DNA of 30,400 bases from an uncultured Gammaproteobacteria bacterium (GTDB taxonomy: Bacteria; Patescibacteriota; Microgenomatia; Daviesbacterales; UBA10151). The translations under genes and the position numbers were made by a program. The notes beneath the pieces are model-generated. The model saw only the letters and a program-made list of their open reading frames with translations. It was not told the DNA's origin and did no database searches. Below are positions 4,904 to 28,195 of the stretch, in pieces (the first letter of the stretch is position 1; each line of letters starts with the position of its first letter). The stretch is taken from contig CAYHYM010000009.1 in assembly GCA_964360965.1 (NCBI GenBank), positions 1-30,400 on the forward strand. The letters run 5' to 3'.

Positions 4904-6397
4904 ATGAAGATATTTGTTATAACGCTATTTCTCCTCTCATTTTTTTTAGTATTCAACTCCCCAGTCAAAGCCATAGTTGATCCCCTCTCTGTTCCTAACA
5001 ATAAATTTGGCATTCATATTATTCAAGCTACTCCTGATGAATCATCTCCGGCGGCCCAACTAGTCAACACCAACGGTGACTGGGGCTATATTACTTTTTT
5101 AATAGAATCCAAGGATAGAAATGAAAGTAAATGGCAGGAGTTTTTTAATGATCTAAGAAGAAAACATCTAATTCCGATTGTTAGGTTAGCCACCAAACCA
5201 GTTAATACTCACTGGGAAAGACCTTATGAAAAAGAGGGTGAAGCTTGGGCCCACTTTTTAGACAAATTAGTCTGGCCTACCAAAAACAGGTATATCATTA
5301 TCTATAATGAGCCAAATCATGCTCAAGAATGGGGAAATTTTACAGATCCTATTTCTTATGCCCATATTTTAAATGACACCATAGATACTCTAAAGAAAAA
5401 GTCTCCGGATTTTTATGTCTTAAATGCCGGTTTTGATGCTTCAGCCCCTCATCAACCACCTAGATTTTTTGATGAAGTAGTTTTTTTACAGGAAATGGAA
5501 AAGGCAGTACCGGGAATTTTTGAAAAATTAGATGGGTGGGTGTCACATTCCTATCCAAATCCGGAATTTTCCGGTTCTCCGGATGCTTTGGGGCGAGGCA
5601 CTGTTCGAACCTACGTTTGGGAACTACAGCAACTGCGTAATTTGGGTGTTTCGAAAAATTTGCCTGTTTTTATCACAGAAACCGGCTGGAAACATGCTGA
5701 AGGATTAACTTTTGAGCCTAGATTCCCTGCAGCAGATACTGTGGCCAGATATTACCAACAGGCTTTTGAAAATGCCTGGAACAGTTCCAGGATCATCGCC
5801 GTGACTCCATTTTTATTAAGCTATCAAGAGCCTTTATTTGCCCATTTTTCCTTTAAAGGACCCACCAATTCCGGACTATATTATCCTCAATATGACACCA
5901 TCAAAAACATGCCTAAAATTTCCGGCCAACCCATCCAGGAAAACAAGGCTACTTTAATCAAAGGTGAGGTCTTTTCATCCATTGTTTCAGGAGAAACTTA
6001 TACCATTTTTCTAACTTTCAAAAATAGCGGCCAATCAATCTGGAATGATGGCTCGCCTCGCTCCTCGCCTCGCGGCGAAGCGGGCGCGGGCGGAGCGGGG
6101 AAAAGGGTGGCTTTGGTGCCAATTGAAAGTGGCAGAGAATTGGGCATAGAACAGATATCCATTCCAGATGGGGTGCAAATTGAACCGGGCAAAGAATATA
6201 CCTTCCAAATTCAACTGAAAGCTCCGCTGAAGGGTATTTTTAAGGTTAGTTTGAATCTGTTTACCGGCAGCCACCCGTTTGATTCAAAACCACCGGTTAT
6301 TTTGCGCCTTTTAACTAAATTAAAATGGAGAAATTCTCCGGCCGGAGAATATATTTTAAGAACTATCGGCACCATAGGTGAATCTACTCAATTATAA
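4904..6397 (+). CDS. secreted clan GH-A-like glycoside hydrolase with C-terminal Ig-like domain
   Basis: Signal peptide MKIFVITLFLLSFFLVFNSPVKA. IIIYNEPNH (acid/base-type NEP motif) and VFITETGW (nucleophile-type TE motif). C-terminal beta-rich region carries a GC-rich insert. Confidence 0.5.
   Translation: MKIFVITLFLLSFFLVFNSPVKAIVDPLSVPNNKFGIHIIQATPDESSPAAQLVNTNGDWGYITFLIESKDRNESKWQEFFNDLRRKHLIPIVRLATKPVNTHWERPYEKEGEAWAHFLDKLVWPTKNRYIIIYNEPNHAQEWGNFTDPISYAHILNDTIDTLKKKSPDFYVLNAGFDASAPHQPPRFFDEVVFLQEMEKAVPGIFEKLDGWVSHSYPNPEFSGSPDALGRGTVRTYVWELQQLRNLGVSKNLPVFITETGWKHAEGLTFEPRFPAADTVARYYQQAFENAWNSSRIIAVTPFLLSYQEPLFAHFSFKGPTNSGLYYPQYDTIKNMPKISGQPIQENKATLIKGEVFSSIVSGETYTIFLTFKNSGQSIWNDGSPRSSPRGEAGAGGAGKRVALVPIESGRELGIEQISIPDGVQIEPGKEYTFQIQLKAPLKGIFKVSLNLFTGSHPFDSKPPVILRLLTKLKWRNSPAGEYILRTIGTIGESTQL
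6051..6100. repeat. GC-rich element (SPRSSPR..GEAGAGGAG family) in frame in the hydrolase gene
   Basis: GCTCGCCTCGCTCCTCGCCTCGCG+GCGAAGCGGGCGCGGGCGGAGCGGGG. Both blocks recur exactly in uvrA at 20723-20793 on the other strand. Confidence 0.8.
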
Positions 6398-6816: not shown

Positions 6817-6919
6817 TTGACAAGTAATAAATAGTATGGTTAAATATACTTACTTGTTAACCGAAAGGTTTACAAGTTCTCGAAGAAAGCCCCGCAAGGG
6901 GTTTTTTTCGTGGTAAAAT
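6817..6919 (+). repeat. 103-nt promoter-hairpin-terminator module, copy 1
   Basis: 102/103 identical to 8352-8454. Contains TTGACA-N17-TTAAAT, a 10-bp hairpin with GAAA loop, an intrinsic terminator, then TGgTAAAAT. Confidence 0.85.
6852..6908 (+). ncRNA. candidate ~55-nt small RNA (copy 1)
   Basis: Predicted start about 7 nt after TTAAAT (6840-6845). Hairpin CTTGTTAACC-GAAA-GGTTTACAAG (6853-6876). Terminator GCCCC-GCAA-GGGGT plus T-run (6886-6908). Confidence 0.35.
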
Positions 6920-8351: not shown

Positions 8352-8454
8352 TTGACAAGTAATAAATAGTATGGTTAAATATACTTACTTGTTAACCGAA
8401 AGGTTTACAAGTTCTCGAAGAAAGCCCCGCAAGGGGCTTTTTTCGTGGTAAAAT
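8352..8454 (+). repeat. 103-nt promoter-hairpin-terminator module, copy 2
   Basis: 102/103 identical to 6817-6919. The only difference is C versus T in the terminator stem. Ends 9 nt before tRNA-Arg. Confidence 0.85.
8387..8443 (+). ncRNA. candidate ~55-nt small RNA (copy 2)
   Basis: Same architecture as 6852-6908. Terminator GCCCC-GCAA-GGGGC followed by TTTTTT. Confidence 0.35.
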
Positions 8455-8681: not shown

Positions 8682-8936
8682 ATGTCTTGGTATGTCTACA
8701 TTGCAAAAGCAAAAACAGGTAGATACTACACCGGTATCACCACAAATCCAAATAAAAGAATTATTAAACATAACTCAGGTAAAGGTTCAAGGTTTGCCAT
8801 AGAACAAGGTCCACTTGAACTGGTCTATATCTCCAAAGCATTTCCAGACAAATCAAAAGCAAGAAAACGGGAAATTCAAATCAAAGGTTGGTCAAGAGAA
8901 AAGAAATTAAAACTAATAAGCGGAGTGTGGAAGTAA
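8682..8936 (+). CDS. GIY-YIG nuclease superfamily protein (YhbQ/UPF0213-like)
   Basis: WYVYIAK..GRYYTGITTNPNKRIIKHN...KREIQIKGWSREKK, the typical stand-alone GIY-YIG layout (84 aa). Confidence 0.75.
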   Translation: MSWYVYIAKAKTGRYYTGITTNPNKRIIKHNSGKGSRFAIEQGPLELVYISKAFPDKSKARKREIQIKGWSREKKLKLISGVWK

Positions 8937-8943
8937 AGTTGAA

Positions 8944-8965
8944 GAGCCGAGCAGGATTCGAACTC
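8944..8965 (-). pseudogene. degenerate tRNA 3' fragment
   Basis: Reverse complement GAGTTCGAATCCTGCTCGGCTC resembles a T loop plus acceptor 3' strand and is close to the 3' end of tRNA-Lys(CUU). No 5' half is present. Confidence 0.4.
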
Positions 8966-13354: not shown

Positions 13355-14671
13355 TCATAGTAGCGCTTCCTTATTCCTTAGTTTTCTATGGAAAGTTAAG
13401 GCAAACCTGTGAGCTTCATCACGCAATTTTTGCAAAAGCTGCAAACTTAAGGATTTTTTGGAAAGTTTTATAATTCGAGCCTTGCGAGAATTACTCAGCG
13501 AAATTCGAGCCTTGCGAGAATTACTCAGTGAAGCGCTAATTTCTCCCTCCGGGGGATAGAGCCATTCCCTTCTTTTGGCCAGACCGAAGATGGGTAGATT
13601 GTGATTAGTAGTTTGTAGTTCGTAGTTTACCGCATTAACTTGTCCCTTGCCACCATCTACTATTATCAGATTAGGGATAGGCCAATCTTTGTGTTTTAAC
13701 CTTCTTCTGATCACTTCTCTCATCATTGCTACATCATTAGGTTTGCCGCTGAGGCGAATCTTAAATTTTCTATACTGTGATTTATCAATATCTCCCTCAT
13801 TTAAAACCACCATTGAACCTGTGGCATTTTTCCCTCCAATATTGGAGATATCATATCCTTCTATTCTTAAAGGTAAAGTTTTTAGATTTAAAACTTTTTT
13901 CAGCTCCTGCAGGGCCAAATTTTTTTGATCTTCGAAAAAATTAGAATTCTCCAAATAAGCCTGGACATTGTTTGGTTGAGTGAGATAATTTATTCCGTCT
14001 ATGATTTTTTTAAGTTTACTTGCTTCTTCAAACTTCTCTCTCTCTGATAGCTTTAACATATCCATTGTCAGTTCCTCAATTAATTTATCCTTTTTCCCGT
14101 CCATAAATTTTGAGAATCGGTTGATTATTTTGTTATAGTCTTCCTTGGAAATTAGCCCAACACAAACTCCTGGACATAATCCCAGATGATGATAAAAACA
14201 TGCTCGACGGGTTCGCAAGGCCAGGCCTTGCGAGGCTGAACACCAAGGGAAGACTTTCCTGAGTAGTTTGAGGGTGTTCCTAACAGTTCTAGCTGAAGGA
14301 AAAGGGCCAAAGAATTTTTTTACCCTTCTCAAATCTTGTTTTCTAAGAGTAATAACTTTGGGAAATTCTTCTTTGGTGATACCAATATATAAATAATCCT
14401 TATCATCTGTTAGTCTGACATTATATTTTGGCAAGTATTTTTTAATAAGACTCGCCTCTAAGATAAGCGCTTCCAACTCTGATGCAACAACAATAGTTTC
14501 AACTGAAGATATTGCAGAAGATAACATGGCTGTCTTTGCGCTCAGACCGAATCGGTTGCTGCGTGAAAAATATGAAGATATCCGATGGTATAAATTTATG
14601 GCTTTACCCACATAAATTACCTGACCATCTTTATTTTTAAAAATATATACCCCGGGTTTTTTGGGAAACAT
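13355..14671 (-). CDS. uvrC: excinuclease ABC subunit C, short form without (HhH)2 domain
   Basis: N-terminal GIY-YIG (PGVYIFKNKDGQVIYVGKA..LYHRISSYF), a UVR-like helix pair (EREKFEEASKLKKIIDGI), IEGYDISNIGG and RDEAHRFAL. The ORF stops about 20 aa after the last motif. Confidence 0.85.
   Translation of the reverse strand: MFPKKPGVYIFKNKDGQVIYVGKAINLYHRISSYFSRSNRFGLSAKTAMLSSAISSVETIVVASELEALILEASLIKKYLPKYNVRLTDDKDYLYIGITKEEFPKVITLRKQDLRRVKKFFGPFPSARTVRNTLKLLRKVFPWCSASQGLALRTRRACFYHHLGLCPGVCVGLISKEDYNKIINRFSKFMDGKKDKLIEELTMDMLKLSEREKFEEASKLKKIIDGINYLTQPNNVQAYLENSNFFEDQKNLALQELKKVLNLKTLPLRIEGYDISNIGGKNATGSMVVLNEGDIDKSQYRKFKIRLSGKPNDVAMMREVIRRRLKHKDWPIPNLIIVDGGKGQVNAVNYELQTTNHNLPIFGLAKRREWLYPPEGEISASLSNSRKARISLSNSRKARIIKLSKKSLSLQLLQKLRDEAHRFALTFHRKLRNKEALL
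13472..13531. repeat. 2 x 30-nt tandem duplication inside uvrC
   Basis: AATTCGAGCCTTGCGAGAATTACTCAG(C/T)GA twice, 29/30 identical. Encodes SLSNSRKARI twice. Confidence 0.85.
14203..14238. repeat. GC-rich palindrome inside uvrC
   Basis: CGCAAGGCC-A-GGCCTTGCG (14214-14232). Shares the GCCTTGCGAG core with the tandem unit at 13472-13531. Encodes ASQGLALRTR. Confidence 0.6.
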
Positions 14672-16749: not shown

Positions 16750-16782
16750 TTTAGCTTGACACCTGAGAGGTGTAAACGTAAA
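16750..16782 (+). repeat. REP-like element upstream of the RAYT ORF
   Basis: TTTAGCTTGACACCTGAGAGGTGTAAACGTAAA with hairpin ACACCT-GAG-AGGTGT at 16759-16773. Exact inverted copy at 26126-26158. Confidence 0.85.
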
Positions 16783-16791
16783 ATAAATTTA

Positions 16792-17448
16792 ATGCCTGGA
16801 AGAAAAACTGTTTTTGAGAATGGATATTTTTATCATGTCTATAACCGGGGCTCTGAAAAAAGGGATATTTTTATAAAACCGCAAAATTATCAAAGATTCA
16901 TAAAAACTATGTACTATTATCAGTACGAGGGACCAAAACTAAGGCTTTCCCTACTAAATCAGGACGGATTCCAAAATTTTAAACCGGATCCCAGTAAGAA
17001 ATTAGTTGAAATTATCTGTTATTGCTTAATGCCTAACCACTTTCACATTCTAATAAAACAACTCAAAGAAAATGGAATTTCTAAATTTATTAGTCAATTA
17101 AGTAATAGCTACACCAAATATTTTAATACCAAATATAAACGTGTAGGAGCTTTATTCCAGGGTGTATTTCAGGCAGTTATTATTGAATCCGATGAACAGT
17201 TCATTCATACCTCCAGATATATTCATTTAAACCCGTCAGTATCAACCTTGGTAGAGAACCCTGCCAATTGGCCTTGGTCCTCTTATACCGAGTATGTTGA
17301 TAAGAAAAAGGGTATTTGTGTTAAAGAACCAATAATGAGTCATTTTCCTTCTGTGGAAGCTTACAAAAAATTTGTCTTGGATCAGCTTGATTACGGGAGG
17401 ATTCTCGAAATCTTAAAACACGGAGCCATTGATTATGATTACACCTGA
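16792..17448 (+). CDS. IS200/IS605-type Y1 (HUH) transposase, REP-associated tyrosine transposase (RAYT)-like
   Basis: YHVYNRG, the HUH motif MPNHFHILIK, and the catalytic-Tyr motif SRYIHLNP. Start set to ATG 16792, because the upstream TTG extension is made of REP sequence. The TGA stop lies inside a REP hairpin. Confidence 0.8.
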   Translation: MPGRKTVFENGYFYHVYNRGSEKRDIFIKPQNYQRFIKTMYYYQYEGPKLRLSLLNQDGFQNFKPDPSKKLVEIICYCLMPNHFHILIKQLKENGISKFISQLSNSYTKYFNTKYKRVGALFQGVFQAVIIESDEQFIHTSRYIHLNPSVSTLVENPANWPWSSYTEYVDKKKGICVKEPIMSHFPSVEAYKKFVLDQLDYGRILEILKHGAIDYDYT

Positions 17449-17457
17449 GAGGTGTAA
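17441..17457 (+). repeat. REP-like hairpin overlapping the RAYT stop codon
   Basis: ACACCTGAGAGGTGTAA is identical over 17 nt to 16759-16775 and in the same orientation. Confidence 0.8.
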
Positions 17458-17560
17458 GCCTCACACAAACTACTTCCGATCGAAAACAACTTGTCATGCG
17501 TACAGGCACATAAGGTCTCACCTTAGTTCAACGGTCGTGTTAACAATGTGATAAGTCCGT

Positions 17561-17579
17561 GCTGACACCTGAAAGATGG
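17561..17579 (+). repeat. degenerate REP-like copy
   Basis: GCTGACACCTGAAAGATGG compared with GCTTGACACCTGAGAGGTG. The second arm is decayed. Confidence 0.4.
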
Positions 17580-17589
17580 AAAGGTAAAT

Positions 17590-18177
17590 TTACCTTCTGA
17601 TTTTTTTTAGAATATGTGAAGCTAATCGAGTTAAGTCTCCAGCCAATAAGAATGCATGAATTCTAAGAACTTCTGCTAAGGTAGGTGTGAGTTCCTTTCT
17701 ATTCTCTCCCAACATTTCACCTAGTAGTTCGCTATCATAATAATACTGCTCACTGCGTACTCTTTCATAATCCACTCCATAGCCCGCTGCCTCCATTAAA
17801 TCAATAATCAGCAGACCTGGTAAGGGTAAACTTTCTGCCCAAGTATTAATAACCTCTTTGGGTGGAATAGTTTCAGTTTCACCATTTGCTCCCATTAAAT
17901 TCCATAACAACTCCAACTTTCCCTCTCCAATTCTTCTATCATGTTCTGCCAGAAATTCTTGATGTAATCCCCATATGGTAAGAACCGCCTCTTTAAAAAA
18001 GTCGGGAGTACCTATACTTGCCGCCAAAGAAGGATCACTCACTCTTCCTATTAAATAACGTTCCTTTACTTCTTCTGGAAATATTGAATGTTCAATTGAA
18101 TAAATAAATATTCGGTTGTGAAGTTCTATATATTTATCCCTAGCCAGCTGAAGCTGTTTAGAAATTTGTTCTTTCAT
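17590..18177 (-). CDS. hypothetical protein, apparently co-transcribed with uvrA
   Basis: 195-aa ORF whose ATG (18177) lies 2 nt after the uvrA stop (18180-18182). Helical and acidic, with no motif recognised. Confidence 0.5.
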   Translation of the reverse strand: MKEQISKQLQLARDKYIELHNRIFIYSIEHSIFPEEVKERYLIGRVSDPSLAASIGTPDFFKEAVLTIWGLHQEFLAEHDRRIGEGKLELLWNLMGANGETETIPPKEVINTWAESLPLPGLLIIDLMEAAGYGVDYERVRSEQYYYDSELLGEMLGENRKELTPTLAEVLRIHAFLLAGDLTRLASHILKKIRR

Positions 18178-18179
18178 AT

Positions 18180-21100
18180 TTATAGTATCTTTGCCAAATA
18201 TTGCCCTGTATAGGAGGATTTGATTTTGGATATATCTTTGGGGGTGCCTTCTGCAATAACTTGTCCGCCTTTATCCCCACCTTCCGGGCCTAAATCTATT
18301 ACCCAATCGGTATTTTTAATCACATCAAGATTGTGCTCTATAATCACCACAGTATTTCCATAGTTTACCAGCTTCCTTAAGATGGTTAATAACCTTTCTA
18401 TATCAGCAAAATGTAAACCGGTGGTGGGTTCGTCCAAAATATAAAGAGTGTGACCAGTTGGACGCTTAGATAATTCAGCAGAAAGTTTAATCCTTTGTGC
18501 CTCTCCACCAGACAGCGTGGGAGCTGGTTGGCCCAATTTTATATATCCCAATCCCACATCATTTAGTACTTGCAGTTTATTTTTGATATTGGGAATATTT
18601 TCAAAAAACTTTAAAGCTTCCTCAACAGTCATGTCCAAAACTTCAGAAATATTTTTATCCTTAAAGTGAATTTCCAAAGCCTCCCTGTTGTAGCGGGCAC
18701 CGTTGCAAGCCTCACAAGTCACATAAACATCCGGCAAAAACTGCATTTCAATTTTGAGCTGCCCTTCCCCTTCACAAACCTCACACCTTCCACCTTTGAC
18801 ATTAAAGGAAAACCTGCCTGGTCCATAACCCCTAATTTTAGCTTCAGTACTTTGGGCAAATAGGTCTCTGACAAAGGTAAAGGCTTCTGTATAGGTGGCC
18901 GGATTTGAGCGGGGAGTCCGGCCTATTGGTGATTGGTCTACCAAAACCACTTTATCCACATACTCTACCCCCTCCAGTTCTTTAAAAGCCCCTGGTCTTT
19001 CCTTGGATCTATAAATTTTTTGAGCTAACGCCTTATATAAGATGTCGTGAATTAAAGTAGATTTTCCGGATCCTGAAACCCCTGATATGGCTATAAACTG
19101 CCCTAAAGGAAAATCCACATTGATATTTTTTAAATTGTGTTGAGAAGCACCAAGAACCTTCAAAACATGATTGTCATTCCCGCGCAGGTCATCGACTCCG
19201 AGGTCGCTCAGACTCGAGGAGCGGGAATCTATTTTAATATTATTTATGGATCCCGTATCCCTTCGGCCTCGCTCAGGGCGGGCAAGTTCAGGATGACCGT
19301 GAACAGTCACTTTTTTCTTACCTGATAAATACTGTCCAGTTAAAGATGTAGTACTTTTTTTAATCTGATCCGGAGTGCCTGTGGTTACTATCTCCCCACC
19401 ATGTTCACCAGCTCCTGGCCCAATTTCAATTAATAGATCTGCATTCTCCATCATCTCTGCATCATGCTCATTAACTATCACTGTATTTCCCAAATCTCTT
19501 AATTTTTTTAAAGTTTCAATTAATCTTGAGTTATCTCTTTGGTGTAAACCAATAGAAGGCTCATCTAAAACATACAAAACTCCGGATAAACCCGAACCAA
19601 TTTGGGAGGCCAGCCTGATTCTTTGTGATTCTCCCCCGGCTAAGGTCATAGCAGCGCGATCCAGCGTTAAATAATCCAAACCAACATCAATTAAGAACTT
19701 AACTCTGGCTTGGATTTCTTTTAAAATAGGTTTGGCAATTTGAGTTTCACGATCATTTAAAATAGATTCTATCACTTCACTACGTTTCGCTCCAGAATGA
19801 CTATTCCCCAATCTTTTAATCCATTCCAAAGCCTCTTTAATAGATTGTGTCACCACTTCTGCAATATTTAATCCATCAATGGTTATTGACAAGGCTTCAT
19901 CTTTAAGTCTTGCTCCATGACACTTAGGACAAATCTCTTTAACCATATATTTTTCTATTTCCCTTTTCACATAATCAGATTCGGATTCTTGATATCTTTG
20001 TTTTAGGTATGAAACCAAACCTTGAAAGCTAGATTTAAAATGAGTCCATCTTCCCTCTCTGTTTCTTCCTTCCACTCTAAATTCTTCGTCCCCAGCACCA
20101 TTAAGTAGCACATTTCTGGCTTTCTCAGATAATTCACCCAGTCTGGTATTTAAATCAAAACCGTAAACTTTGCCTACTGACTGAATAAGTCTTGAGAACC
20201 AGGTTTCATGAGTGGCTAACTTTTGCCATGGTAAAATTCCACCTTCTGCAATAGATAAAATGGGGTTTAAAACCATTTCCGGATCAATTTCCAAAAGTGA
20301 TCCTAAACCATGGCAGGTAGGACAAGCTCCATGAGGAGAATTAAAAGAAAATAGTCTTGGTTCCACCTCGGATAAGGCAATATTGTCAACCGGACAGGCA
20401 AATCTTTCAGAATAAAGATGATCGTCCATTTTCTTGGGATTTTGGGGAAATTCTAAAGAAGCGTCCAGGACTTCAGAAACAATCACGGATCCTTCACCTA
20501 ATTTGAGCGCTGTCTCGATGGATTGGGAGAGCCTGTTTATAATGTCATTCCCGCGCATGCGGGAATCCAATTCCGAACGTGACTTTGTTAATTGGATCCT
20601 CCTCGAGTCTGAGCGACCTCGGAGTCGAAGACCTGCCTTCGCAGGGATAACAGACTTATCCAATATGAGTCTGTCCACTACTGCATCGATAGTATGCTTA
20701 TTAGTTTTAATCAACACTAAATCCCCCGCTCCGCCCGCGCCCGCTTCGCCGCGCCCTGCGTCGCCGGAGGCGCGAGGCGAGGAGCGAGGCGAGTCTGTTA
20801 AGTCTCTAATTTGTCCATCAACCCTAACCTTTGAAAAACCTTTTTTCCTCAAATCTTCAAAAAGTTGGAAATATTCTCCTTTTCTGTCTTTAACCACAGG
20901 AGCCAAAATCATTATTCTTCTCGAAGACCCTGAGCGAGACTTCGACGGTGAGTCTTTCGACCCTGAGCTCAAGACCGAAGGGCTCAGTCGAACCGCGTAG
21001 CGAGTCGAAGGGTTCCCTACCACTTGTTCCACAATTTGTTCTACTGACATTCTACTAATCTCCCTTCCACAAATTGGACAATGGGGATGGCCAACCCTGG

Positions 21101-21443
21101 CAAATAAAAGCCTTAAATAATCATAGACCTCAGTAGTTGTTCCCACAGTAGAACGTGGATTATGTGAAACACCTTTTTGGTCAATAGAGATGGCCGGGGA
21201 TAAACCCTCAATATAATCAACATCAGGCTTGTCCATTACCCCTAAAAACTGCCTGGCATAAGCAGATAAAGATTCCACATATCTTCTTTGACCTTCTGCA
21301 TAAAGGGTATCAAAAGATAAAGAAGACTTGCCGGAACCGGAAATCCCCGTTAAAACCACCAACTTGTTCTTGGGAATTTCCAGATCAATATTCTTGAGGT
21401 TATGCTCTCTCGCCCCTTTTATAATAATCTTATCTATAGCCAT
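18180..21443 (-). CDS. uvrA: excinuclease ABC subunit A, expanded by in-frame insertions
   Basis: GISGSGKSSL and GVSGSGKSTL Walker A motifs. Two LSGGE signatures (LAGGESQRIRLA, LSGGEAQRIKLS). Zinc modules CPxC...CxxCxG. 1087 aa. Confidence 0.95.
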   Translation of the reverse strand: MAIDKIIIKGAREHNLKNIDLEIPKNKLVVLTGISGSGKSSLSFDTLYAEGQRRYVESLSAYARQFLGVMDKPDVDYIEGLSPAISIDQKGVSHNPRSTVGTTTEVYDYLRLLFARVGHPHCPICGREISRMSVEQIVEQVVGNPSTRYAVRLSPSVLSSGSKDSPSKSRSGSSRRIMILAPVVKDRKGEYFQLFEDLRKKGFSKVRVDGQIRDLTDSPRSSPRASGDAGRGEAGAGGAGDLVLIKTNKHTIDAVVDRLILDKSVIPAKAGLRLRGRSDSRRIQLTKSRSELDSRMRGNDIINRLSQSIETALKLGEGSVIVSEVLDASLEFPQNPKKMDDHLYSERFACPVDNIALSEVEPRLFSFNSPHGACPTCHGLGSLLEIDPEMVLNPILSIAEGGILPWQKLATHETWFSRLIQSVGKVYGFDLNTRLGELSEKARNVLLNGAGDEEFRVEGRNREGRWTHFKSSFQGLVSYLKQRYQESESDYVKREIEKYMVKEICPKCHGARLKDEALSITIDGLNIAEVVTQSIKEALEWIKRLGNSHSGAKRSEVIESILNDRETQIAKPILKEIQARVKFLIDVGLDYLTLDRAAMTLAGGESQRIRLASQIGSGLSGVLYVLDEPSIGLHQRDNSRLIETLKKLRDLGNTVIVNEHDAEMMENADLLIEIGPGAGEHGGEIVTTGTPDQIKKSTTSLTGQYLSGKKKVTVHGHPELARPERGRRDTGSINNIKIDSRSSSLSDLGVDDLRGNDNHVLKVLGASQHNLKNINVDFPLGQFIAISGVSGSGKSTLIHDILYKALAQKIYRSKERPGAFKELEGVEYVDKVVLVDQSPIGRTPRSNPATYTEAFTFVRDLFAQSTEAKIRGYGPGRFSFNVKGGRCEVCEGEGQLKIEMQFLPDVYVTCEACNGARYNREALEIHFKDKNISEVLDMTVEEALKFFENIPNIKNKLQVLNDVGLGYIKLGQPAPTLSGGEAQRIKLSAELSKRPTGHTLYILDEPTTGLHFADIERLLTILRKLVNYGNTVVIIEHNLDVIKNTDWVIDLGPEGGDKGGQVIAEGTPKDISKIKSSYTGQYLAKIL
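19173..19297. mobile_element. TIR MITE-like element in uvrA with nested insertions
   Basis: The GTCATTCCCGCGCAG..GCGGGAATC end is split by a 33-nt element at 19188-19220. The GGATCC..TCAGGATGAC end contains a CTGAGCG/CCGAAGG-type segment at about 19254-19287. Confidence 0.65.
20544..20651. mobile_element. TIR MITE-like element in uvrA with one nested 33-nt insertion
   Basis: Intact end GTCATTCCCGCGCATGCGGGAATCCAATT. The other end, ATTGGATCC|CTGCCTTCGCAGGGATAAC, is split by TCCTCGAGTCTGAGCGACCTCGGAGTCGAAGAC (20600-20632). 108 nt, 36 codons. Confidence 0.75.
20723..20793. repeat. GC-rich element (SPRSSPR..GEAGAGGAG family) in frame in uvrA
   Basis: Reverse complement is CTCGCCTCGCTCCTCGCCTCGCG + 21 extra nt + GCGAAGCGGGCGCGGGCGGAGCGGGGG. 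The 23-nt and 26-nt blocks are identical to 6052-6100. Confidence 0.8.
20920..21013. repeat. GC-rich composite element (CCTGAGC / GTCGAAGG family) in frame in uvrA
   Basis: Contains CCCTGAGCGAGAC, CCCTGAGCTCAAGACCGAAGGGCTCAG and GCGAGTCGAAGGG. Encodes about 30 residues (STRYAVRLSPSVLSSGSKDSPSKSRSGSS) where canonical UvrA has a short linker. Confidence 0.65.
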
Positions 21444-21461
21444 AGTTTATAATCCCTTCGG

Positions 21462-21571
21462 GTCCGAGCTCTTCGAGTCCGAGCTCTTCGAGTCCGAGCC
21501 TCAGAGTCGAGGACCTCAGAGTCGAGGACCTCAGGGTCGAAGACCTGAGCGACCGAAGGGAGTCGAAGGAC
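21462..21571. repeat. GC-rich ~15-nt-period tandem array in the uvrA 5' region
   Basis: Units all start GTC(C)GA: GTCCGAGCTCTTCGA x2, GTCCGAGCCTCAGA, GTCGAGGACCTCAGA, GTCGAGGACCTCAGG, GTCGAAGACCTGAGCGACCGAAGGGA, GTCGAAGGAC. Confidence 0.8.
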
Positions 21572-21682
21572 ACTAAAATTACCGCACTATTGTAAACCAT
21601 TTTGCAAGATTTTTAAAGGATTAATATGTTAAAATCTGTTCAAAATGAAGATAGAACAATATTTACTACAGAATCCAATACT

Positions 21683-21724
21683 TTAAATACTTAATTCCTT
21701 AATCTGATCTCTTAATCTGGCCGC
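21683..21724 (-). pseudogene. recoded duplicate of the uvrB 3' end (13 codons + stop)
   Basis: Encodes AARLRDQIKELSI*, identical to the uvrB C-terminus at 21759-21800. It has 9 nucleotide differences, all synonymous. It is out of frame with uvrB and lies behind stop codons. Confidence 0.7.
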
Positions 21725-21758: not shown

Positions 21759-23771
21759 TTAAATACTTAACTCTTTTATTTGATCTCTAAGGCGGGCTGC
21801 TTCTTCAAAATCTAATATTTCTGCTGCTTGGTGCATTTGTTCCTCTAAATTTCCGATCATTTTCTGCCTCTCATTAACTGGTATATCTTCTATAGTTAAT
21901 TCTTTTTTACCCAATTTTTCCTCTATTTCTTCAACTTTCTCAATAAGTCTTTCCCTCAAAGCTTTTTCAATGCTTCTGGGTTTTATGTTATGCTTTTTAT
22001 TATATTCCATCTGGTACTTTCTTCTTCTGTCTACCTCCTCAATTGCTGACTTCATAGATTTGGTCATATTATCTGCATACATAATTACTTGCCCCTTAAC
22101 ATGTCTGGCAGCCCTGCCCATGGTTTGGATCAAAGAAGTTTTGCTTCTTAAAAAACCCTCTTTATCCGCATCCAAAATAATTACCAAAGTTACTTCAGGC
22201 AAATCCAATCCTTCCCTTAAAAGATTAATTCCCACAATCACATCATATTCACCTAATCTTAAAGACTGGAGAATATCAGATCTTTTTAAAGTTTCTATAT
22301 CAGAATGTAAGTAATTTACTTTAATGCCTCTCTCTTTTAGATAATCAGTCAAATCTTCTGCCATTCTTTTGGTAAGTGTAATAATTAGCACCCGTTCTCT
22401 ACGTTCCACCCTTTTTTCCACCTCAGAAATGATATCCTGAATCTGTCCTTGTGTAGGTCTGACAGAAACTTGAGGATCAAAAATGCCTGTAGGTCTGATA
22501 AGCTGCTCTGCTATCCCACACCCGGTGTGGGTTTGAGTTGACACACCGGGTGTGTGTCCTGAACAGGCCAAACTTATCTCATACTCATCCGGAGTTGCTG
22601 AAGCATAAATTACCTGATTAATTTTTCTCTGAAACTCATCAAATCTTAAGGGTCTATTATCCAAAGCAGAAGGAAGCCTGAAACCAAACTCAATCAAAGT
22701 TTCTTTTCTGGAACGGTCTCCGTTGTACATCCCACGCAGTTGGGGCAAAGTGATGTGGGACTCATCAATAATCAATAAAAAATCTTCAGGAAAATATTCC
22801 ATTAAAGTATACGGAGGGTCACCTTCTTTTCTGCCTTCAAAATATCTGGAATAATTTTCTATCCCATTACAATAACCGAATTCCTTAATCATCTCCAGAT
22901 CATAATAAGTTCTTTGTTCCAGTCTCTGAGCTTCTACTAATTTGCCTTGTTTTCTTAAATCTTTAATCCTAAATCTTAAATCTTCTTCTATTTGTTTTAT
23001 AGCAGGCAACATTCTGGACTCCGGAGTAATATAGTGTTTGGCAGGATAGATGGTTAAGGTTTGAGGGGTTGGGGTAGCAACACCAGTCAAAGGATCCAAG
23101 TGCGAAATTCTCTCTATCTTATCTCCTAAAAATTCTACTCTGACAGCTTGTTCCAAATAAGCAGGGAAAATATCTATAGTGTCTCCCTTAACTCTGTAGG
23201 TAGATCTTTTAAAATCCAAGTCATTTCTTGAATAAAACATCTTTTGAAGCATTTTAAGAATCGTCTGGAAACCTGTTCTTACCCCCATCTTTAGCTCTAA
23301 AATTGCCCCGCCATATTCAGCGGGAGATCCCAAATTGTAGATACAAGAAACTGAGGCGACCACTATCACATCTTTTCTGGTCATTAAAGAAGTCGTTGCA
23401 GAAAGGCGCAATTTTTCTATCTCTTCATTAATATTGGTCTCTTTTTCAATATATGTATCTGATTGGGGTACATAAGCCTCAGGCTGATAATAATCATAAT
23501 AAGATACAAAATACTCGCAAGCATTTTTGGGAAATAAAGACCTAAATTCTTGAGCTAGCTGTCCTGCTAAAGTTTTATTGTGGGAAATAACCAAAGTGGG
23601 TCTTTGCACTTTCTGGATCACATTGGCCATGGTAAAGGTTTTACCGGATCCAGTCACACCCAGTAGTACCTGATGTTCTTGTCCAGAATTAAGCCCGGAA
23701 ACAAGCTTCTCAATAGCTTGAGGTTGGTCACCTGTAGGTTTGAATTCAGAAATAATCTTAAATTTTGCCAT
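21759..23771 (-). CDS. uvrB: excinuclease ABC subunit B
   Basis: FKPTGDQPQAI, Walker A GVTGSGKTFT, DESH box (IIDESHITLPQ), helicase motifs, and a C-terminal UVR domain (LDFEEAARLRDQIKEL). Start set to ATG 23771 (MAKFKIISEFKP). The track start at 23780 is a TTG. Confidence 0.95.
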   Translation of the reverse strand: MAKFKIISEFKPTGDQPQAIEKLVSGLNSGQEHQVLLGVTGSGKTFTMANVIQKVQRPTLVISHNKTLAGQLAQEFRSLFPKNACEYFVSYYDYYQPEAYVPQSDTYIEKETNINEEIEKLRLSATTSLMTRKDVIVVASVSCIYNLGSPAEYGGAILELKMGVRTGFQTILKMLQKMFYSRNDLDFKRSTYRVKGDTIDIFPAYLEQAVRVEFLGDKIERISHLDPLTGVATPTPQTLTIYPAKHYITPESRMLPAIKQIEEDLRFRIKDLRKQGKLVEAQRLEQRTYYDLEMIKEFGYCNGIENYSRYFEGRKEGDPPYTLMEYFPEDFLLIIDESHITLPQLRGMYNGDRSRKETLIEFGFRLPSALDNRPLRFDEFQRKINQVIYASATPDEYEISLACSGHTPGVSTQTHTGCGIAEQLIRPTGIFDPQVSVRPTQGQIQDIISEVEKRVERRERVLIITLTKRMAEDLTDYLKERGIKVNYLHSDIETLKRSDILQSLRLGEYDVIVGINLLREGLDLPEVTLVIILDADKEGFLRSKTSLIQTMGRAARHVKGQVIMYADNMTKSMKSAIEEVDRRRKYQMEYNKKHNIKPRSIEKALRERLIEKVEEIEEKLGKKELTIEDIPVNERQKMIGNLEEQMHQAAEILDFEEAARLRDQIKELSI
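22515..22558. repeat. pair of REP-like hairpins inside uvrB
   Basis: CCCACAC-CCG-GTGTGGG (22515-22531) and TTGACACAC-CGG-GTGTGTGTC (22538-22558). Encodes SGHTPGVSTQTHTGCG in frame. Confidence 0.7.
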
Positions 23772-25688: not shown

Positions 25689-26366
25689 ATGCTATACATT
25701 ATTCCCACTCCCATAGGTAATTTAAAAGATATCACTTTAAGAGCACTTGAAGTTTTAAAAGAGGTGGATTCTATAATTTGTGAAGACACCAGAAGAACTG
25801 GATTACTTCTTAATCATTACCAGATTAAAAAGCCTCTTTTGGTATTGAACGATTACAACGAAGCAAAAATCCTGGATTCCACTATAGAGCGGCTCAGAGC
25901 TGGAGAGAATCTTGCTTTAGTGTCTGATGCAGGTACCCCACTTATTTCTGATCCAGGATATAAACTGGTCAGAGAGTGTTTCCACCAGGGGATTCCGGTT
26001 GATTCCCTCCCGGGTCCTTCTTCTGTTATCACAGCTTTAACACTTTCCGGTCTTCCTCCTGATAAATTTTTATTTCTAGGATATTTACCGGAAAAGCTTG
26101 GTCACAGAAAAACTTTACTAGAAACTTTACGTTTACACCTCTCAGGTGTCAAGCTAAACCCAACTTATATTTTATATATAGCTCCCCATAAACTGATCAA
26201 AACTCTCGCTGAGATGAAAGAAGTTTTTGGGGATATTGAAGTAGTTTTAGCCCATGAATTAACTAAAATCCATCAAAGTGTGGAAAAGAAAAAAATAAGT
26301 GAATGGCTGGAAACATTAAAAAATCCAAAGGGAGAGTATATATTACTATTCAACAAGGGGTGGTAA
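25689..26366 (+). CDS. rsmI: 16S rRNA (cytidine1402-2'-O)-methyltransferase
   Basis: LYIIPTPIGNLKDITLRALEVL, IICEDTRRTG, VSDAGTPLISDPG. Carries a 33-nt REP insertion in frame. Confidence 0.85.
   Translation: MLYIIPTPIGNLKDITLRALEVLKEVDSIICEDTRRTGLLLNHYQIKKPLLVLNDYNEAKILDSTIERLRAGENLALVSDAGTPLISDPGYKLVRECFHQGIPVDSLPGPSSVITALTLSGLPPDKFLFLGYLPEKLGHRKTLLETLRLHLSGVKLNPTYILYIAPHKLIKTLAEMKEVFGDIEVVLAHELTKIHQSVEKKKISEWLETLKNPKGEYILLFNKGW
26126..26158 (-). repeat. REP-like element, 11 in-frame codons inside rsmI
   Basis: TTTACGTTTACACCTCTCAGGTGTCAAGCTAAA is the exact reverse complement of 16750-16782 (33/33). Confidence 0.9.
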
Positions 26367-26666
26367 AACCTTTCCCCAGTAAATTCCCTCCCATTCTTCC
26401 TCACTTAATTCTCTGCGTGCTTTTTCGAAATCTTCAGAGAACTTACGTTTTTCCTCAGAATCTGGAGAAGATATCCCACTATCTAGAGGACCTACAGCTA
26501 AAACGCGCTCATCTCCTATAACAACAGTTCTGCCAGTGTACCTGGGGTCACCTAAAATCTGCTCTTGAAAAAAACCTTCGTTTTTACTGTAAGCTGCAAT
26601 GGCAGCTCTACTCCTAGCAGCACTGGGATTTTCTGGGGACAATCTTTTTATTTCTACTTTACTCAT
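26346..26666 (-). CDS. hypothetical protein
   Basis: 106-aa ORF that overlaps the upstream PEP-enzyme-like gene stop by 4 nt. Its 3' end overlaps the rsmI 3' end by 21 nt, convergently. Confidence 0.45.
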   Translation of the reverse strand: MSKVEIKRLSPENPSAARSRAAIAAYSKNEGFFQEQILGDPRYTGRTVVIGDERVLAVGPLDSGISSPDSEEKRKFSEDFEKARRELSEEEWEGIYWGKVLPPLVE

Positions 26667-28195
26667 ATACTTTTCCTTAGTATAACTCTATTTTCTGCAT
26701 TATACAACAAATCTTTTGCACTATTTGCCTCATATCTTTCCACCACCACCCCATAAACTCCCCTCTCCACCAAAAATTCCAACACTTCAGGATATAAAGC
26801 CAAACTTCCATAAGTTATAAACGGTATCTTAGATTTATGTAATAGTTTTAACCCATCCTCCATAAATTTTAATAAACCACTCACTTCGTTTTTGTAAAAC
26901 ATCAAATCCTCCTGTGTGGTGTCGAATCCATTTAAATGAGCTATCAGTTCATCCAGGTTTAACACCACTCCATCCAAACCAGCTACCAGATAATCCTCCA
27001 AATTAACAATATTTTCCGGTACAGCTACTTCCAGCCAAAGCTGTAAGGAGTTTTTTCTGGACAACTTTTTAACAGCCAGTTCTCTTTTAATTTGTAAAAA
27101 CTCCCCAACTCCTCTAACAAACGGAATAACTATGTGAATATTATTTATGCCTTTTTTAAGACTGCCATCTGGCAGTCGCAATTTATGCTTATGCCTTATA
27201 AAATCAGCTGCATCCACCATGGGCTGGAAAAGACTCTGTTGATGCAAAAGCCTTAATGTCCCCCTGACTTTACCCATCCCCTCTGATTTATCAGCCAGTT
27301 TAAATAAAATGGGAGAACTTGGAAAAGTTGCGGCAGATTCCACCAATCTAAAAACCAAATCCTCAAAAGAATCTCTTACGTTATTTAGATCAAATATTTT
27401 CTCAGAAGCAATATAGATTCCATCAACTGCCCTTTCCACTACCAATCCCGTAGATAAATCCAAAAAGACTTTCACGGCACTTAATACCTTAGGTGTCCTA
27501 TCTGGACCACCTCCCAGGTGTATGTCCACACCGGGTGTGTGGTAGCTTGACACCCCGGGGTGGGTATAGGGCTTAATTCCAACAATTTTAACTCCCCTAT
27601 CAACAATCCATTCATACTGATGAGGTATAAACAACTTTTTATTAGCTTCTCTGACTATCTCATCCAATTTTTTCAAATCATTAGGAGCAAGTTTCCCCCA
27701 TTTGACATTAATCACAGTATCATCCAGTATGGGATCAAAATAAGCTAACCCTAAGCTCCCTACCTTTTTTACAAAAGTTACCACCTGAGGCTCCAAATTC
27801 TCTGTAATGCCCTGATAAAAACCCTCTTTCCAAAGTCTAGCTTTAGTCTGTTCCAGCCATAACTCAAGAAGCGTAAGCCAAAGATTTTTGATGGATTTAA
27901 TCTGTACTCCATTTAATAAGAAATGGTTGTGGTTGCCAACCTCTTTTTTCAAAATTACAGGGATAGGTGTGGAATTTATTTCTTTTTTTACCAGGGTTAA
28001 GCTTTGCTCAAAAATTTCCTTTGATCCAAAATCGTAATGCTCAAGGATTGTTTTAAGATGTAAATCAGGCGGGGTAACCACTATTCCTGCTCCCACCGGC
28101 AAGATTGTCCGTGCCAGTTTCCCCAAAGCCACATTTAACTGGCCAAAAATTGGGAAATCTTCATCCAGTAAAACTTTTATGGGCAGAATCTCCAT
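26663..28195 (-). CDS. PEP-utilising-enzyme (PpsA/PPDK TIM-barrel)-like protein
   Basis: HIVIPFVRGVGEFLQIKREL and LWLEVAVPENI...AGLDGVVLNLDELIAHLNGFD resemble the PEP-utilising TIM-barrel blocks. Carries a cluster of three REP-like hairpins in frame. Confidence 0.45.
   Translation of the reverse strand: MEILPIKVLLDEDFPIFGQLNVALGKLARTILPVGAGIVVTPPDLHLKTILEHYDFGSKEIFEQSLTLVKKEINSTPIPVILKKEVGNHNHFLLNGVQIKSIKNLWLTLLELWLEQTKARLWKEGFYQGITENLEPQVVTFVKKVGSLGLAYFDPILDDTVINVKWGKLAPNDLKKLDEIVREANKKLFIPHQYEWIVDRGVKIVGIKPYTHPGVSSYHTPGVDIHLGGGPDRTPKVLSAVKVFLDLSTGLVVERAVDGIYIASEKIFDLNNVRDSFEDLVFRLVESAATFPSSPILFKLADKSEGMGKVRGTLRLLHQQSLFQPMVDAADFIRHKHKLRLPDGSLKKGINNIHIVIPFVRGVGEFLQIKRELAVKKLSRKNSLQLWLEVAVPENIVNLEDYLVAGLDGVVLNLDELIAHLNGFDTTQEDLMFYKNEVSGLLKFMEDGLKLLHKSKIPFITYGSLALYPEVLEFLVERGVYGVVVERYEANSAKDLLYNAENRVILRKSI
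27508..27562. repeat. cluster of three REP-like hairpins inside the PEP-enzyme-like gene
   Basis: CACCT-CCC-AGGTG (27508-27520), CACAC-CGG-GTGTG (27527-27539), and GCTTGA-CACCCCGGGGTG (27545-27562). Encodes HPGVSSYHTPGVDIHLGGG. Confidence 0.7.

Follow-up and report, generated by a model that had tools for sequence, protein, structure and literature searches.

The element described here occupies positions 19172-19298 of the window (viz. the whole stretch of 30,400 nucleotides (nt) of contig CAYHYM010000009.1 that was analysed), where it lies within the gene uvrA. It is probably selfish repeat DNA rather than a designed part of the UvrA protein, viz. a dimer of CGTC-type repetitive extragenic palindromes (REPs), whose long-loop hairpins are loaded with two small modules of 24 and 33 nt, referred to below as M24 and M33. 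The element sits in the variable linker which joins the two ATPase halves of UvrA. An earlier reading of this DNA, made without database searches (the sequence-only reading), had described it as a terminal-inverted-repeat mini-element with nested pieces in both of its end hairpins, and this description holds, as in two relatives (L002 and L003) the hairpins found at the same codon are un-nested. The observation is real and its nested reading is right, whereas two of the arguments built upon it, concerning the reading frame and a stop-codon signature, fail for the reasons given below. Further, that reading did not recognise that the hairpins of the host element agree with a superfamily already described (the CGTC-tagged REPs), and the part worth pursuing is the two loop modules, which are invariant across phyla and apparently undescribed.

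Structure of the element and of the same site in relatives

The UvrA concerned, of 1087 amino acids (aa), comes from a groundwater genome of Candidatus Daviesbacteria (Patescibacteria); its open reading frame (ORF) occupies 18180-21443 on the minus strand, and the protein is matched to solved UvrA structures at E=0. The match consists of four aligned blocks (query residues 4-149, 175-223, 303-715 and 760-1086), and outside of these blocks lie extra segments at about 150-174, 224-302 and 716-759. Opposite query residues 715-760 the solved UvrAs have a short connection of ~10 residues, whereas the insert that is found here measures 125 nt (about 44 residues). The uvrA reading frame is intact and every UvrA domain aligns, so that the element would be, like Rickettsia palindromic elements in the broad sense, an in-frame insertion in a functional gene that is read through, and if this is the case the peptide ...IDSRSSSLSDLGVDDLRGNDNH... 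is expected in UvrA. The parts of the element are as follows.

19172-19298, minus strand: whole host element, by description a head-to-head pair of CGTC-type REPs with the tags outward; corresponds to UvrA residues about 716-757, HGHPELARPERGRRDTGSINNIKIDSRSSSLSDLGVDDLRGNDNH
19172-19187, plus strand: first part of REP-b, with the tag TGTC (19172-19175), the 8-nt arm ATTCCCGC (19176-19183) and the 4-nt loop GCAG (19184-19187)
19188-19220, minus strand: nested M33, which reads TCCTCGAGTCTGAGCGACCTCGGAGTCGATGAC on the minus strand (minority T variant), placed after the loop of REP-b and before its second arm; encodes SSSLSDLGVDD
19221-19231, plus strand: second part of REP-b, with the arm GCGGGAAT (19221-19228) and the tail CTA
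19232-19246, no strand: A+T-rich spacer between the REPs, 9 nt longer than in L002 and L003, which adds the residues N-I-K
19247-19258, minus strand: distal part of REP-a in the minus-strand reading, with the loop base A, the arm TACGGGAT and the tail CCA
19259-19282, minus strand: nested M24, which reads CCCGCCCTGAGCGAGGCCGAAGGG on the minus strand and lies in the 5-nt loop CTTG^A of REP-a; encodes ARPERGRR
19283-19298, minus strand: proximal part of REP-a in the minus-strand reading, with the tag GGTC, the arm ATCCTGAA and the loop CTTG

On the plus strand, 19172-19231 reads TGTC ATTCCCGC GCAG [GTCATCGACTCCGAGGTCGCTCAGACTCGAGGA] GCGGGAAT CTA, i.e. a hairpin with a perfect stem of 8 base pairs (bp), whose two halves stand on either side of the 33 nt that split it, in agreement with the sequence-only reading. 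The full reading of the element is GTC ATCCTGAA CTTG [CCCGCCCTGAGCGAGGCCGAAGGG] A TACGGGAT CCA TAAATAATATTAAAATA G ATTCCCGC [TCCTCGAG...GATGAC] CTGC GCGGGAAT GACA. At the opposite end (GGATCC...TTCAGGATGAC), the core of the hairpin had been thought to be replaced, at about 19254-19287, by a segment of the CTGAGCG/CCGAAGG type. A piece of this type is indeed present, but neither the replacement nor its limits can be upheld: the second piece is a clean addition of 24 nt (CCCTTCGGCCTCGCTCAGGGCGGG, 19259-19282) in a 5-nt loop, and both arms of REP-a are kept (ATCCCGTA at 19250-19257 and TTCAGGAT at 19287-19294). When M33 and M24 are taken out, the loops that are left are GCAG (4 nt) and CTTG+A (5 nt). 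The distal arm of REP-a, TACGGGAT, is of the resident type, as in L003 and L139, and the proximal arm, ATCCTGAA, has 2 mismatches to its partner and is identical to the arm of the commonest composite of REP-a and M24 seen elsewhere.

The linker site was compared in an alignment of 120 UvrAs. The nearest homologues are from Candidatus Daviesbacteria (Patescibacteria), with at most 80% identity and a typical length of 961-989 aa vs 1087 aa here. Several Daviesbacteria UvrAs have repeat-derived peptides exactly at the linker site, whereas the closest relatives are lacking them: P0002 has a native linker of 13 residues (NGELKREAVDAGY), and in L004 and other close relatives no element is found at this site. 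In L002 (P0012, 78% identity), the same codon holds GTC ATCCCGCA CTTGA TGCGGGAT CCA TAAATATA G ATTCCCGC TTTC GCGGGAAT GACA, and in L003 the same first hairpin is present at this codon, as ATCCCGTA CTTGA TACGGGAT. Compared with L002, the hairpins of the window show loop additions of exactly +24 nt (19259-19282) and +33 nt (19188-19220); M24 is missing from both L002 and L003 at the same loop position, and M33 is missing from the orthologous hairpin of L002. As the loops at the same codon in L002 and L003 have the short length of 4-5 nt, the 24- and 33-nt pieces are nested additions. Judging from these sequences, both hairpins are long-loop forms in the lineage of the window, with M24 in the loop of REP-a and M33 at the junction of loop and arm in REP-b, and the REP dimer at the linker codon is older than the split of this lineage from those of L002 and L003. 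In L239, the same REP-a carries a different hairpin of 21 nt.

The opposite polarity would be that the long-loop form is ancestral and that 24 and 33 nt were lost from the relatives by precise deletion, or else that the element is an assembly chimera, and it can be said for this explanation that palindromes are prone to deletion and that repeats may mislead assemblers. However, the short loops of L002 and L003 have the canonical 4-5 nt of this family in other phyla, the modules are found in hundreds of unrelated contexts, and there are no direct repeats at the junctions which could drive a precise deletion. Further, the same intact frame of 1087 aa is present in two separate assemblies, as an independent contig from a Hainich groundwater assembly encodes an identical UvrA protein. 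This explanation is therefore disfavoured and we give it hardly any credence.

The same comparison bears on the reading frame, which according to the sequence-only reading is changed on the side of the second insert and restored after it. This is not the case, as both additions are multiples of three and the un-nested element of L002 uses the same two frames (HPAL...DSRFRGND); the difference between GHPE and VIPA, which had suggested a change of frame, is due to the spacer length of a different dimer type and not due to the insert. It had also been suggested that the 33-mer may be free of stop codons in all six frames, as a signature of selection for in-frame tolerance. However, it is open in 5/6 frames (with one TGA), and the GATGAC variant of the window is open in 4/6. 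Since by our own estimate a 33-mer of 60% G+C is open by chance in about 70% of its frames, these values are at about the chance level and give no sign of selection for six-frame readability.

The host element as a CGTC-tagged REP dimer

By description, 19172-19298 can be assigned as a head-to-head dimer of CGTC-type REP hairpins, of the superfamily of the Neisseria element dRS3 and the Rickettsia palindromic elements (RPEs) RPE-4 and RPE-6. In the paper by Di Nocera, De Gregorio and Rocco 2013 (PMC3733652), the members of this superfamily include dRS3 from Neisseria and, from Rickettsia conorii, RPE-6 (CGTC-1) and RPE-4 (CGTC-4), and its features are an unpaired terminal (C/T)GTC tag (CCTC is accepted), a stem of 8-9 bp whose first two positions are complementary A-T, and a short unpaired tail that is mostly CCA. 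The paper gives loops of 4 nt in family 1 and 5 nt in families 2-4, and describes the elements as multi-copy with a predominance of head-to-head dimers and with a sequence type common to different phyla. They are known there from five phyla, often as intragenic copies in genes for replication and repair, polymerase genes included, with examples in uvrA of Thioalkalivibrio and Opitutus and in uvrB of R. conorii; they are without a dedicated flanking transposase, and some REP families are found inside other palindromes (PMC3733652).

Of these features, the tag is found as TGTC at 19172-19175, 20543-20546, 3966-3969 and, on the minus strand, 4045-4042. The stems ATTCCCGC/GCGGGAAT, ATCCCCGC/GCGGGGAT, ATTCCTGC/GCAGGAAT and ATCCCGCA/TGCGGGAT fit the description, REP-a of the window being the one with the 2 mismatches noted above, and the loops of un-nested copies are GCAT, GTAG, GAAT and TTTC (4 nt) or CTTGA (5 nt). 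The sequence ATTCCC-N8-GGGAAT is one that we take to be dRS3. A tail of CCA is seen in 5/7 of the listed copies from the window and its orthologues; in REP-b it is CTA, and this REP, with an 8-bp stem that starts with AT and a 4-nt loop, fits CGTC-1. Pairs with outward tags are present at 3967-4044, 19172-19298 and 20543-20652, and 10 kb of L002, a related Daviesbacteria contig, contain three more head-to-head dimers of the REP-a/REP-b type (3581-3644, 5572-5630 and 8898-8953), one of them directly upstream of the uvrA start. The strict hairpin scan, on which our REP counts are based, gave 3 un-nested copies in the window vs 0.15 expected from shuffles; in a permissive scan that accepts long loops, the shuffles had as many matches as the window.

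A second element of this kind is present in uvrA and it also carries M33.

20543-20652, minus strand: partner element, a CGTC-1 head-to-head pair; encodes VIPAKAGLRLRGRSDSRRIQLTKSRSELDSRMRGND
20600-20632, plus strand: second copy of M33 (A variant, the majority form), which interrupts an arm of the partner's second REP (ATCC^CTGC)

The partner element reads TGTC ATTCCCGC GCAT GCGGGAAT CCA ... TGG ATCC[M33]CTGC CTTC GCAGGGAT AACA. The sequence-only reading had regarded the 33-mer at 19188-19220 as the reverse orientation of that at 20600-20632, and the two are reverse complements with 1 mismatch; a repeat search of the window reports a 38-nt arm pair at 97%. Its view of the 33-mer as a reusable piece which is read both ways on the uvrA strand is likewise correct, the peptides being SSSLSDLGVDD at 19188-19220 and LRLRGRSDSRR at 20600-20632. 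No further copy at <=3 mismatches was found in the window, and 100 shuffles gave 0. In L240, an un-nested copy of the element of the 20543-20652 type, with the same spacer, occupies the linker site, i.e. another site of uvrA, which indicates that the dimers move as units.

The window (38% G+C) contains a gene cluster for nucleotide-excision repair and SOS functions (uvrC, uvrA, uvrB, lexA and a Y-family polymerase gene), in and around which other repeats are seen. A third insert in uvrA, at 20925-21017 (residues about 147-173), is a string of CTGAGC/GTCGAAGG modules. L073, a metagenome-assembled genome (MAG) labelled Gammaproteobacteria, has nearly the same composite with M33 between ...CCGCGGAGC and GAGTCGAAGGG, and the copy in the window is thus the 'empty' form. 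The region 20724-20793 (uvrA residues about 218-240) is a block of up to 83% G+C, of which 100% complementary copies of 30 and 23 nt are found at 6052-6100 inside the unrelated ORF 4904-6397; in P0017, P0029 and P0058, shorter forms of the block occupy this site of UvrA. The gap between uvrA and uvrB (21452-21576) contains tandem 15-nt units (GACCTCAGAGTCGAG) that are like the 3' half of M33, followed by CTGAGCGACCGAAGGGAGTCGAAGG. The ORF 3058-4446 (polymerase IV-like, Y-family) contains in frame the un-nested CGTC dimer at 3967-4044 and a second G+C-rich palindrome at 4265-4310, and in uvrC there is a 30-nt tandem duplication, perfect but for one position (13472-13531). A further G+C-rich palindrome lies at 14197-14255. 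A 103-nt direct repeat, 99% identical, is present at 6817-6919 and 8352-8454, with one copy about 90 nt upstream of tRNA-His and the other immediately upstream of tRNA-Arg.

The loop modules and how they reached the hairpins

The distribution of M33 was determined with an exact 24-nt core in species-representative genomes, and that of M24 with an exact 20-nt core in metagenome contigs. The 33-mer is not confined to the two places in uvrA where it was first noticed: among the matches listed, its core is present in >115 stretches elsewhere, all of them MAGs. The hosts among these matches include Saccharibacteria, several Microgenomates and Parcubacteria lineages, Peregrinibacteria/Peribacteria, Berkelbacteria, Altimarinota, Zixibacteria, Ignavibacteria (with a contig of 1.4 Mb), TA06 and Bdellovibrionales, as well as bins that carry the label Gammaproteobacteria. 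The boundaries that had been drawn for it are also reproduced, as sharp edges are seen in 114 aligned copies, in which the family block CTCCTCGAGTCTGAGCGACCTCGGAGTCGAWGAC is conserved to 97-100% inside and 40-60% immediately outside. A single variable position has A in 95 of these copies and T in 14. M33 folds as a hairpin of its own (-14.6 kcal/mol). The base before it is C in 99% of the copies, GCT precedes it in about 60% and GCTC in 45/114; the context ...TTCGACnnGCTC^AGGG accounts for 21 copies and CCTGCCTGC^CGGCAGGCAGG for 8, and in 17 copies CTGAG(C) comes next. In hairpins with a GTCAT tag, all 10/10 copies have the same orientation relative to the tag. Copies within open frames of >=600 nt (43/115) fall into five classes of frame and orientation, and 72/115 lie outside long open frames. 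The host genes that were confirmed with Pfam are those for TopA, MutS2, PolA, a penicillin-binding protein, a DinB-type polymerase (in L092), NusA, QueA and a flavoprotein. No copies of M33 consisting of one half-site only were found in 1.5 Mb of fetched loci, and the possibility that M33 represents the fused ends of a longer element was rejected on this basis.

For M24, the core is present, among the matches listed, in >119 metagenome contigs of 31-72% G+C, and in 115 copies from metagenomes the edges of its family block, GCCYGCCCTGAGCGAGGCCGAAGGG, are sharp; like M33, it folds as its own hairpin. Composites of REP-a and M24 are seen in about ten contigs with an identical CTTG^ position, and their arms occur in four variants, all perfectly paired, viz. 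ATCCTGAA/TTCAGGAT, ATCCCGTA/TACGGGAT, ATGCTGAA/TTCAGCAT and ATCCCGAA/TTCGGGAT. Copies at 3-7 mismatches were not found in the fetched loci, which had themselves been picked by exact match; loci selected for M33 were without M24, and those selected for M24 without M33. Neither module was found in IMG/VR, M33 was not found in INPHARED, and PLSDB gave no match for M33 or for the composite hairpin bearing M24; a phage, virus or plasmid vector was rejected due to these results. In Rfam, only tRNAs reach the gathering score in the window and nothing relevant is seen at E<=5 in 18900-21700, so that a known RNA family was likewise rejected for the modules. Literature searches with sequence strings, encoded peptides and keywords found no account of M33 or M24. 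Thus, while the host element is of a known kind, the loop modules appear undescribed. As a tentative proposal, to which we would give somewhat less than an even chance, M33 and M24 may form an undescribed class of ultra-short, gene-less and nearly invariant mobile hairpin modules, which colonise the loops of other palindromes across many phyla, Patescibacteria lineages among them. Their common build, viz. stem-T|GAGCGA...CGA|A-stem with C-GAA-G mini-hairpins, would then point to a single machinery acting at the DNA level or to a broad horizontal vector.

As a rule, the modules are located within other small palindromes, and some copies are read through as part of essential genes. If the element is selfish repeat DNA, as we consider probable, the modules may have been copied from a REP of the same type that had been loaded before, by a short patch of gene conversion or of replication template switching for which the REP arms would serve as homology, whereas the jumping in of a bare 24- or 33-mer is less likely. 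Two observations suggest such copying. REP-a of the window is a mosaic, in which the first arm and M24 (CCCG variant) correspond to the commonest composite, ATCCTGAA-CTTG-M24, found in L123 (from the same Hainich sample), L191 and L205, whereas the second arm is of the resident TACGGGAT type; and REP-b with the T variant of M33 is present both in the window and in L033, the copy at 20600 being of the A type. Inside a gene, the additions that survive would be those whose length is divisible by three and which bring no stop into the frame used, and the 44 encoded residues may be tolerated by UvrA as an unstructured surface linker.

A different explanation, possible although distinctly less probable in our opinion, is that M33 and M24 are themselves tiny non-autonomous transposons. 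In this case, an enzyme acting in trans, of the HUH/Y1 type (RAYT, the REP-associated tyrosine transposase, or IS200-like) or similar, would cut the single-stranded hairpins and paste them into loops, in a site- and orientation-specific manner and without target duplication. This would account for the sharp boundaries, for the absence of target duplications at the module sites, and for blocks which exceed the net addition by one base (34 vs 33 and 25 vs 24), as if a target base were required. The constant C and frequent GCT before M33, its fixed orientation in the GTCAT-tagged contexts, the identical CTTG^ position of all composites of REP-a and M24, the existence of one composite with M33 (L073) and without it (window 20925-21017), and the folding of each module as its own hairpin are all in keeping with this, and Y1 transposase genes are present in these genomes. 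However, these genes are not flanked by the modules and no enrichment of such genes is seen near the modules. The mosaic REP-a includes an arm of the donor type, which clean insertion does not predict, the two copies of M33 in the window differ in structural position (loop junction at 19188-19220 vs mid-arm at 20600-20632), and the constant orientation can equally be explained by the spread of whole composites. Folding of the healed flanks, as a check for loop targeting, does not discriminate, as controls folded across the junction almost as often; the context classes given above were counted by sequence instead.

Regarding the Y1 genes, a RAYT-like gene of the IS200 type is located at 16792-17448 (plus strand), 0.7 kb from uvrA; its protein scores 59.5 against the NCBIfam model REP_Tyr_transpos, for which the cut-off is 80. 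It is flanked by a REP of its own, GACACCTGAGAGGTGTAA, with hairpins at 16750-16787, 17441-17469, 17565-17593 and 26126-26158, and due to this it looks like a REPtron. In L003 and L240, RAYT-like genes are likewise found around the uvr cluster, at other positions, and the flanking REP differs from gene to gene. Hairpin pairs of the type ACACC...GGTGT, which are related to the REP flanking the Y1 gene, are seen inside ORFs at 22501-22575 (uvrB) and 27504-27583 (ORF 26663-28195), and in L089 M33 lies inside a hairpin of this type. A link of the modules to Y1/RAYT transposases, as in REPINs and REPtrons, was rejected, since in three Daviesbacteria the flanks of these genes differ from the dispersed REP type and no enrichment of such genes is seen near the modules.

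It may further be asked if the insert is kept for a function, either as a longer or charged linker of UvrA (acting in dimerisation or UvrB loading) or as a regulatory structure of the mRNA or DNA; a role of REPs in repair genes in a mutator state has also been speculated upon. Many Daviesbacteria do have REP-type inserts at the same 3-4 hot spots of their UvrA, such inserts in uvrA and uvrB of other phyla are described in PMC3733652, and the 127-nt element has a strong fold of about -43 kcal/mol on either strand. However, the closest relatives have no element at this site and retain the native linker of 13 residues, the encoded peptides are wholly different between lineages, and the modules, which for the most part are non-coding, occur in five different reading frames where they fall within unrelated proteins. 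An AlphaFold model that made use of 60 homologues predicts coil for residues 716-757 as well as for the three other inserts, with a predicted local distance difference test score (pLDDT) <50, i.e. they are probably disordered. A function of this kind is thus improbable, though less so than the loss by precise deletion discussed above.

Several points speak against the interpretation that we prefer, viz. a selfish CGTC-REP dimer whose modules were copied from loaded hairpins. The tag of REP-a is GGTC in the window and L002 and AGTC in L003, and not CGTC, only GTC being constant, and the conversion patch is deduced from two arm positions and one variant position. No difference in presence or absence is seen between near-identical genomes, so that recent mobility is a matter of inference. 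No enzyme is linked to the modules: in the window, L003, L240 and L149 alike, the RAYT-like gene is flanked by unrelated hairpins of its own, none of which is a CGTC REP, M33 or M24, and a Y1-type gene is present in only 2/234 module loci. Lastly, the AlphaFold model is moderate overall (mean pLDDT 60, predicted template modelling score 0.47), and the low confidence for the inserts lends weak support to their being disordered.

Significance and comparison with known mobile repeats

In-frame REPs in repair genes were known from Proteobacteria and Verrucomicrobia, and Patescibacteria, with their reduced genomes, can now be added: in one window of 30 kb, such inserts are present in all of uvrA, uvrB, uvrC and a Y-family polymerase gene. 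Beneath the REP lies another layer, as modules of 24 and 33 nt, the same across phyla and over a wide range of G+C, are nested in REP loops and in essential genes. CGTC REPs are without a known mobilising enzyme, and the sharp edges, fixed orientation and recurrent targets of the modules make them concrete substrates for finding one. In practical terms, these inserts make proteins longer and create spurious 'hypothetical proteins', and they could mislead analyses of homology, binning and horizontal transfer in MAGs.

In comparison with the CGTC REPs of PMC3733652, the host here belongs to Patescibacteria, outside the five phyla listed in that paper, and the loops contain nested modules of 24 and 33 nt, whereas the paper mentions just odd loop lengths in a few species. 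The situation is like that of RPE-1 and its relatives (Ogata et al., cited in PMC3733652) in that palindromes are found in frame in functional genes of a small A+T-rich genome; the peptides of RPE-1 are translated as additional surface peptides. However, RPE-1 is >100 nt and limited to one genus (PMC3733652), whereas here REP dimers and modules are common to several phyla. The REPIN/RAYT system (GTAG REPs; Bertels and Rainey; Nunvar et al.; modelled in PMC8049555) is similar in that two inverted REPs form a mobile doublet, but here there is no GTAG tag, the modules are of low copy number per genome and the RAYT-like gene is flanked by another REP. A classical miniature inverted-repeat transposable element was rejected, as inverted ends are present but no target-site duplication is seen at the edges of the dimer, M33 or M24 when compared with empty or un-nested sites. 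Palindrome-associated elements derived from IS200/IS605 make no duplication, insert 3' of a fixed tetra- or pentanucleotide and show a strand bias with replication; in the case of M33, no duplication is seen, the base 5' of the block is C in 99% of the copies and 45/114 copies follow GCTC.

In mitochondrial genomes, GC clusters and hairpin elements are inserted into each other as well as into coding sequence. Like the GC clusters of yeast (PMC4478555) and the hairpin elements of sponges (PMC2800124), the modules described here are short G+C-rich hairpins in an A+T-rich genome. However, the mitochondrial elements are organellar and lineage-specific and have no sequence relationship to those of the window, and the comparison is thus one of 'works like' only. 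REP hairpins are also targeted by the insertion sequences (IS) IS1397/ISKpn1 and ISPpu10. Another one, ISPpu9, has been found inserted into REPs (PMC8450116). The nested modules resemble these in that the target of one mobile element is the REP hairpin of another; however, the REP-targeting elements are full insertion sequences with transposase genes, whereas M33 and M24 are 24-34 nt in length and encode nothing.

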